This document shows, piece after piece, positions 1 through 445 of a stretch of DNA of 15,059 nucleotides. This DNA is from a virus (lineage: Duplodnaviria; Heunggongvirae; Uroviricota; Caudoviricetes): IMG/VR virus record IMGVR_UViG_2609460125_000004. The stretch is one strand, 5' to 3'. The notes beneath the pieces were generated by a model. It did not search any database. It saw nothing but the letters and a program-made list of their open reading frames with translations, and was not told the origin of the DNA. Position 1 is the first letter of the stretch; each line of letters begins with the position of its first letter. The position numbers were made by a program, and so were the translations under genes.

Positions 1-334
1 TGATGTTCCACAGCGATCAGGGCAGTCATTATACGAGCAGGCAGTTCCGGCAGTTATTGTGGCGATACCAGATCAGACAGAGTATGAGCCGGCGCGGAAA
101 CTGCTGGGATAACAGCCCAATGGAACGCTTCTTCAGGAGTCTGAAGAACGAATGGATGCCGGTGGTGGGTTACGTAAGCTTCAGCGAGGCAGCTCACGCC
201 ATAACGGACTATATCGTTGGATATTACAGCGCACTAAGACCGCACGAATATAACGGTGGGTTACCCCCAAACGAATCGGAAAATCGATACTGGAAAAACT
301 CTAACTCGGTGGCCAGTTTTTGTTGACCACTTCA
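1..334 (+). mobile_element. Right end of an IS3-family insertion sequence (IS911-like); the element continues beyond the left window edge
   Basis: Transposase C-terminus ends at 326. The last bases, ...GGCCAGTTTTTGTTGACCACTTCA (311-334), end in CA, as IS3-family termini do, and match the IS911 terminal inverted repeat as I recall it. Phage regulatory DNA (nutL) starts about 25 bp later. Confidence 0.8.
3..326 (+). CDS. IS3-family transposase (OrfB, DDE integrase core), C-terminal fragment truncated by the window edge
   Basis: Translation contains [10 protein letters not shown]...[25 protein letters not shown], the conserved C-terminal region of IS3/IS911-group transposases including the final acidic residue of the DDE triad; stop codon lies inside the terminal repeat. 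Confidence 0.9.
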
Positions 335-358
335 CCCCAAAGCCAACTACTCTTTGGT

Positions 359-400
359 TCCCGCATTTCGGCGGGACAATCCCATCAATGTTAAAGAGCC
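359..400 (-). promoter_or_regulatory. nutL-like site: boxA (GCTCTTTAA, 391-399 on minus) followed by boxB hairpin (359-376)
   Basis: Minus-strand reading gives GGCTCTTTAACA, then a spacer, then TCCCGC-CGAAAT-GCGGGA. The same boxB core recurs after cro (nutR). The site lies downstream of the predicted PL start. Confidence 0.65.
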
Positions 401-445
401 TGCCAATCTGTTCCGTTTGGCTTCCAGCGTCCTGCTGATGGCTAA

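Follow-up and report, generated by a model that had tools for sequence, protein, structure and literature searches.

The DNA analysed here, a 15,059-nucleotide stretch of virus DNA (Caudoviricetes) referred to below as the window, opens within an insertion sequence and continues into the immunity region of a prophage. Positions 328-2455 share 97.9% nucleotide identity with the phages HK620, HK630, HK140 and mEpX2, and the HK620-type cI, cro and operator set is present; the prophage is P22-like and has immunity of the HK620 type. Transfer of the HK620 annotation (AF335538; locus coordinate = window + 1673) gave the layout found alike in HK620, HK140, mEpX2 and HK630, with nutL, pL, OL1-3, tIMM, hkaS, cI, OR, cro, nutR and cII in this order. 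The repressor gene cI (1007-1723, minus strand) encodes 238 amino acids with HTH_3 and Peptidase_S24 domains, and a gene for an hkaS-like membrane protein of 122 amino acids (620-988, minus strand), whose exact protein occurs in 2149 collection blocks, is co-oriented with it. Both had been named in the original prediction, which was made from the letters of the window, and both are intact. The terminator of the cI-hkaS transcript, tIMM (507-537, minus strand), was taken over from the HK620 annotation only. To the right of cI lie cro (1824-2024), which like cI carries the expected Pfam domains, nutR (2032-2074, plus strand; about 2029-2074 by transfer) and cII, which ends at 2411.

The early leftward promoter PL was placed at 446..474 on the minus strand by a consensus scan (TTTACA-17-TATTCT at 474..446), compared with 439-474 in the transferred annotation, and overlaps the operators OL1-OL3 (about 447-510, HK620 transfer). 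A complete nutL had been predicted at 359-400, and the HK620 annotation gives the same coordinates on the minus strand. Motif and fold agree with this assignment, since boxA GCTCTTTAACA (399-389, minus strand) is followed after a spacer of 12 nt by the boxB hairpin TCCCGCCGAAATGCGGGA (376-359, minus strand). Only two places in the window combine boxA GCTCTTTAACA, a 12-14 nt spacer and boxB TCCCGCCGAAATGCGGGA, one at 359-399 (minus strand), downstream of PL, and one at 2032-2074 (plus strand), downstream of cro, and no match turned up in 200 shuffles; nutR has the same boxA and boxB as nutL, and both boxB sequences fold as the expected hairpin. The boxA at 389-399 (minus strand) and 2032-2042 (plus strand) has the rrn-consensus form, the lambda variant being CGCTCTTA. 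An rrn boxA alone can give partial resistance to Rho-dependent terminators, and with a boxA of this form N may be less needed for resisting Rho, so that a substantial share of polymerase could read through independently of N.

The IS911 copy and its target site

Window positions 1..334 (plus strand) represent the right-hand 334 bp of IS911 and correspond to positions 916-1249 of the 1249-bp reference copy. They are 100% identical over their full length to RefSeq elements named "IS3-like element IS911 family transposase" and to the IS911 of Shigella flexneri plasmid pCP301, so that what had been predicted as an IS911-like member of the IS3 family is IS911 itself. The last 107 codons of orfB (3-326, plus strand) encode the end of the transposase catalytic domain, with the integrase-core domains rve, rve_3 and rve_2 (Pfam) in C-terminal position. 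The right inverted repeat IRR (307..334, plus strand) has the terminus ...CCACTTCA; its tip reads ...GTTGACCACTTCA, also given as ...GGCCAGTTTTTGTTGACCACTTCA, with the last base at window position 334. This end, which the original prediction had also put at 334, is fixed by a two-sided divergence: after 334 the window parts from a separate IS911 copy that has different surroundings, and to the left of 335 the uninterrupted HK620, HK140, AST240 and E21845 diverge from it at once. Full 1249-bp copies served as IS911 references, after two IS30-truncated copies had been replaced. In a full copy, IRL and IRR form a 28-nt inverted repeat with 75% complementarity, and the tips match imperfect 5'-TG...CA-3' terminal inverted repeats (IRL TGAAGTGGCACAC..., IRR ...GTTGACCACTTCA).

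The left end of the element was located on the source scaffold of the window, KN150717.1 (GCA_000754175.1), which encodes the exact hkaS protein and extends past the window start; the reverse complement of its positions 1-10988 equals window 1-10988 with 0 mismatches, and coordinates labelled scaffold refer to it throughout. Directly left of window position 1 lies a gap of 100 N (scaffold 10989-11088) inside IS911, corresponding to about 176 unassembled bp within orfB (IS positions 740-915). This gap in a repeated IS explains why the window opens inside a transposase gene: IS911 is present in multiple copies in Shigella and E. coli, at up to 24 places per genome, and is common on Shigella chromosomes (PMC5630979). 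Beyond the gap follow the left 738 bp of the element, ending in IRL (TGAAGTGGCACACTGAATTTGGCC..., scaffold 11826 downward), and the assembled 738 + 334 bp map to positions 1-739 and 916-1249 of the 1249-bp references. The left part, which lies outside the window and is 99.7% identical to the S. flexneri plasmid copies, contains orfA and the A-AAA-AAG (A6G) site for -1 frameshifting, and the right part contains the rve domains. The allele departs from the pCP301 IS911 at two points, a C-to-A change at IS position 596 and the loss of 1 nt from a C5 run in orfA (IS position 245-246, scaffold ~11582), which shortens OrfA to 83 amino acids ending at the A6G site. The deletion may be a sequencing error in the draft assembly or may mark a dead IS copy. 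The closeness of the allele to the S. flexneri copies is a hint, no more, that the DNA stems from a Shigella.

Comparison of the flanks with uninterrupted relatives revealed a target-site duplication, CCC, with its right copy at 335..337 and its left copy at scaffold 11827-11829, outside the window. The sequence reads ...CACGTCACCC before IRL and CCCCAAAGCC after IRR, compared with CACGTCACCCCAAAGCC in the uninterrupted HK620 and its relatives, and HK620 as well as 113 complete E. coli genomes carry the empty site CACGTCACCCCAAAG. When the IS and one CCC are removed in silico, 776 nt remain, which 113 complete E. coli genomes contain without interruption; strains AST240 and AST20 match best, at 99.5% in one piece. 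As read from these flanks, the 3-bp duplication is a hallmark of simple IS911 transposition. The original prediction had proposed that a second IS end, a 3-4 bp target duplication and an N-like open reading frame be sought to the left of the window; IRL beyond the gap, CCC on both sides and an intact N-like frame beyond IRL are what the scaffold holds there. Between the IS end and boxB lie 24 nt (335-358), where about 25 bp had been estimated; seen from the insertion point, the boxB hairpin of nutL is 24 bp upstream and the start codon of N 86 nt downstream.

On the N side, 5 bp from the insertion point, the target contains CACTTCA (scaffold 11835-11841), which equals the last 7 nt of IS911, is oriented as in IRR and is separated from IRL by 8 bp; a rough post hoc count puts the chance of such a match at roughly 0.5%. 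A second, IR-directed targeting mode has been reported for IS911 (PMC9333248, PMC3299598). We do not claim that the insertion was targeted by an IR-like sequence, as the match covers the cleavage tip only, without the transposase-binding part of the IR.

The N gene and its leader

The N gene lies outside the window, past IS911, at scaffold 11913-12185 and encodes an intact protein of 90 amino acids. It scores 57.5 bits against Pfam N_peptide (cut-off 27.9), carries the arginine-rich motif ...NARNRRRARRQAQRE... in its N-terminal part, is preceded by a GGAGG Shine-Dalgarno sequence and differs from HK620 N at 4 of 90 residues. Its ATG begins 86 nt past IRL. Whereas in the uninterrupted HK620 the ATG follows boxB after 107 nt, about 1,360 nt separate the two here, with 1.25 kb of IS911 and the 3-bp duplication in between, and the leader from PL to N, about 190 nt long without the IS, now measures about 1,440 nt. 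The left arm past N keeps the canonical order N-ral-cIII-kil-...-xis-int. The original prediction, which saw the IS between PL-nutL and the N region, had left two outcomes, N removed or N moved by more than a kilobase behind the element; the second holds, and N has been displaced by about 1.25 kb, not deleted.

Among relatives, the spacer between nutL and N differs naturally by about 205-250 bp, and in HK140 it contains an extra 41-codon open reading frame. Because of this natural variation we regard the N leader as a mosaic junction that tolerates insertions. In a consensus scan for promoters toward N, no promoter-like site scored 9/12 or higher inside the IS, past IRL or in the 86-nt leader. 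The only outward-facing hexamer, TTGACC at 323-328 in IRR, was rejected as an N promoter, as it points the wrong way, toward nutL and PL and convergent with PL; it has only a poor -10 (ACTACT), 17 nt downstream. TTGACC in IRR is known as the -35 half of the strong junction promoter in IS911 circles.

Transcription across the insertion and a second lesion

The transposase genes lie on the window plus strand and point toward PL, so that PL transcripts enter at IRR and cross the IS in antisense. A search for intrinsic terminators in this antisense strand found two weak hairpins and no excess over chance (3 vs 2.3 expected). The "polar element" of the original prediction therefore cannot rest on such hairpins, and we infer that polarity of antisense IS911 would be Rho-dependent. 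In several 80-nt intervals of the antisense IS RNA, the C content lies 10 points or more above that of G (RNA positions about 220-440, 540-620 and 680-800). The element also contains an antisense ATG open reading frame of 142 codons which, if translated, would keep Rho off part of the RNA. Beyond N, terminator-like hairpins on the PL strand number 18 compared with 9.5 +/- 2.8 in shuffles (scaffold 12410-19061, plus strand), a tR2-like terminator lies behind the helicase gene (window 4862-4885), and the HK620 and Sf6 annotations list tL1, tL2, tR1 and tR2; on these grounds, the genes downstream of N look N-dependent. A strong hairpin at scaffold 14028-14049 has the position of the Sf6-annotated tL2A.

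A second lesion, independent of the IS911 insertion and absent from the original prediction, was found in the replication region. Compared with four relatives, 77 bp are deleted at about 2979-2991, between 11-bp direct repeats (TTGTCCAACGG). The deletion frameshifts the O-like replication gene, which encodes 296 amino acids in relatives and is split into two open reading frames here (2594-3007 and 2889-3407), and takes out 4 of the 6 iterons of the origin that is annotated in HK620 and Sf6. It is possibly an assembly collapse. If real, it alone should render the prophage replication-defective, and it is at least as likely as IS911 to be the lesion that makes the prophage defective.

IS911, in its S. 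flexneri allele, entered the untranslated leader of the PL operon by simple transposition with duplication of CCC, and PL, the OL operators, nutL, N, cI and hkaS are all intact. We propose that, upon loss of the repressor, the first polymerases, still free of N, would have to cross about 1.25 kb of untranslated, C-rich and G-poor RNA. Such RNA should provoke Rho-dependent termination, early transcripts would often stop before N, and N synthesis would be lowered or delayed. The N-dependent delayed-early genes would be affected in turn, on the left the recombination genes and xis/int, and on the right those beyond tR1/tR2 up to Q. Polymerase passes nutL before it reaches the element, so that N, whether newly made or contributed by another prophage, could modify it in time; the block is therefore probably leaky and self-relieving, not absolute. 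Together with the ori/O-like deletion, this points to a most likely decaying ("grounded") prophage from which the immunity functions, cI and hkaS, are still expressed. We assign this explanation as a whole, with IS911 in the N leader, a leaky Rho-type reduction of N and a decaying prophage, a probability of about 0.7. The original description of the prophage as N-defective and locked in place is a plausible hypothesis.

A less probable but tenable alternative is that the insertion is close to neutral, the IS being a passenger and N-free read-through, by leakiness or by boxA with NusB/S10, sufficing to start the N feedback. The antisense strand without intrinsic terminators above chance, the intact nutL upstream of IS911 and the tolerance of the leader for extra DNA are consistent with this. 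Moreover, the viable phage Sf6 has an IS911 inside an N-antiterminated operon, oriented relative to transcription as it is here, and deletion of this IS leaves the timing of late transcription unchanged (PMC5630979), which argues against strong polarity of the element toward polymerase that carries N. However, Sf6 makes N before polymerase reaches the IS, whereas here N lies behind it, so that Sf6 does not test a first passage without N, and 1.25 kb of untranslated RNA with stretches of C over G is a typical Rho substrate. Furthermore, all 5,426 complete E. coli genomes searched lack the junction of IS911 and phage, and its exact 31 nt are absent from the GTDB species representatives and IMG/VR, which would fit an insertion that is not maintained, or simply a recent one.

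We consider it unlikely that the insertion has turned N expression into a threshold switch, in which rare read-through of the IS ignites the N feedback and the early programme is conditionally inducible. If so, the prophage might be induced, for example, only with Rho compromised or with a co-resident lambdoid prophage supplying a cognate N, and it would offer a natural construct for comparing N-free and N-modified passage through a defined Rho-dependent barrier. Selection of the insertion as a domestication event, damping a lethal lytic programme while the host benefits from the retained cI immunity and hkaS, appears very unlikely to us. Its appeal is that the lesions fall on two early-lytic functions, the N leader and the ori/O-like gene, and spare cI and hkaS, and resident prophages that have lost N are on record for E. 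coli O157 (PMC6379469); yet one insertion in one lineage makes selection inseparable from drift, Shigella-like genomes show rampant IS expansion, and the complete E. coli genomes, GTDB species representatives and IMG/VR hold no parallel insertions at the site. Finally, the contiguity of the IRR-nutL and IRL-N junctions in a single copy depends on the join across the 100 N, and recombination between IS911 copies (inversion or deletion) could have split PL-nutL from N, as the window starts at this gap inside a multi-copy IS and as recombination within the element would keep both junction sequences, so that the target duplication is no bar; but the scaffold joins exactly two contigs whose flanks rebuild a perfect empty site with matching CCC, and the prophage gene order is canonical on both sides (N-ral-cIII-kil-...-xis-int on the left), and a wrong join is thus highly improbable.

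Comparison with other IS-bearing lambdoid phages

Judged by sequence, every component of the locus, IS911 as well as the HK620-type PL-nutL-N-cI region, is already described at 98-100% identity, and only the exact insertion site is new to the collections searched. An 87-aa open reading frame across the junction (261-524, minus strand) has no record as a called gene; among the papers searched, none pairs HK620 with nutL, and none is relevant to nutL, insertion sequence and prophage combined. The locus is a case of ordinary IS-driven prophage decay, known in kind, and not a new system, and its relevance is mostly limited to the annotation of this genome, whose prophage is damaged in two places, by IS911 in the N leader and by the 77-bp ori/O-like deletion.

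Polar IS insertions in the early operons of lambda were reportedly described by Adhya, Gottesman and de Crombrugghe in 1974, and their polarity is said to be suppressed by N. As in these classical cases, the IS lies in an operon with a nut site at its start, and N-modified polymerase is expected to override it. Unlike there, where N is expressed normally, the IS here is upstream of N, and N expression itself falls under the polarity. IS insertion in lambdoid prophages is furthermore a known route of decay and of modulated induction (PMC6379469; PMC10810198). IS629 in the Stx prophages of E. coli O157 and the IS-rearranged prophages of Shigella dysenteriae resemble the present case in having an IS in a lambdoid prophage, but differ in the element and in the site, and phenotypes were measured there.

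The closest comparison is Sf6 (AF547987), a P22-like lambdoid phage with an N-antiterminated early operon and the same 1249-bp IS911, which lies in ninG (gene 54), between nutR and Q; the passage of PMC5630979 that cites Casjens et al. 2004 likewise places IS911 in ninG/gene 54 of this Shigella phage. In both cases phage transcription, from PR in Sf6, reaches IRR first and then runs antisense through the transposase genes. In Sf6, however, the IS is located far downstream of N and nutR in a dispensable nin gene, polymerase is already N-modified when it arrives, and the phage is viable, whereas in the present prophage the IS lies between nutL and N, and the first transcripts cross it without N. 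With this order of nutL, IS and N, expression of N depends on N-free passage through the element. Beside Sf6, the prophage might therefore serve as a natural test case for comparing N-independent with N-dependent transcription through IS911.
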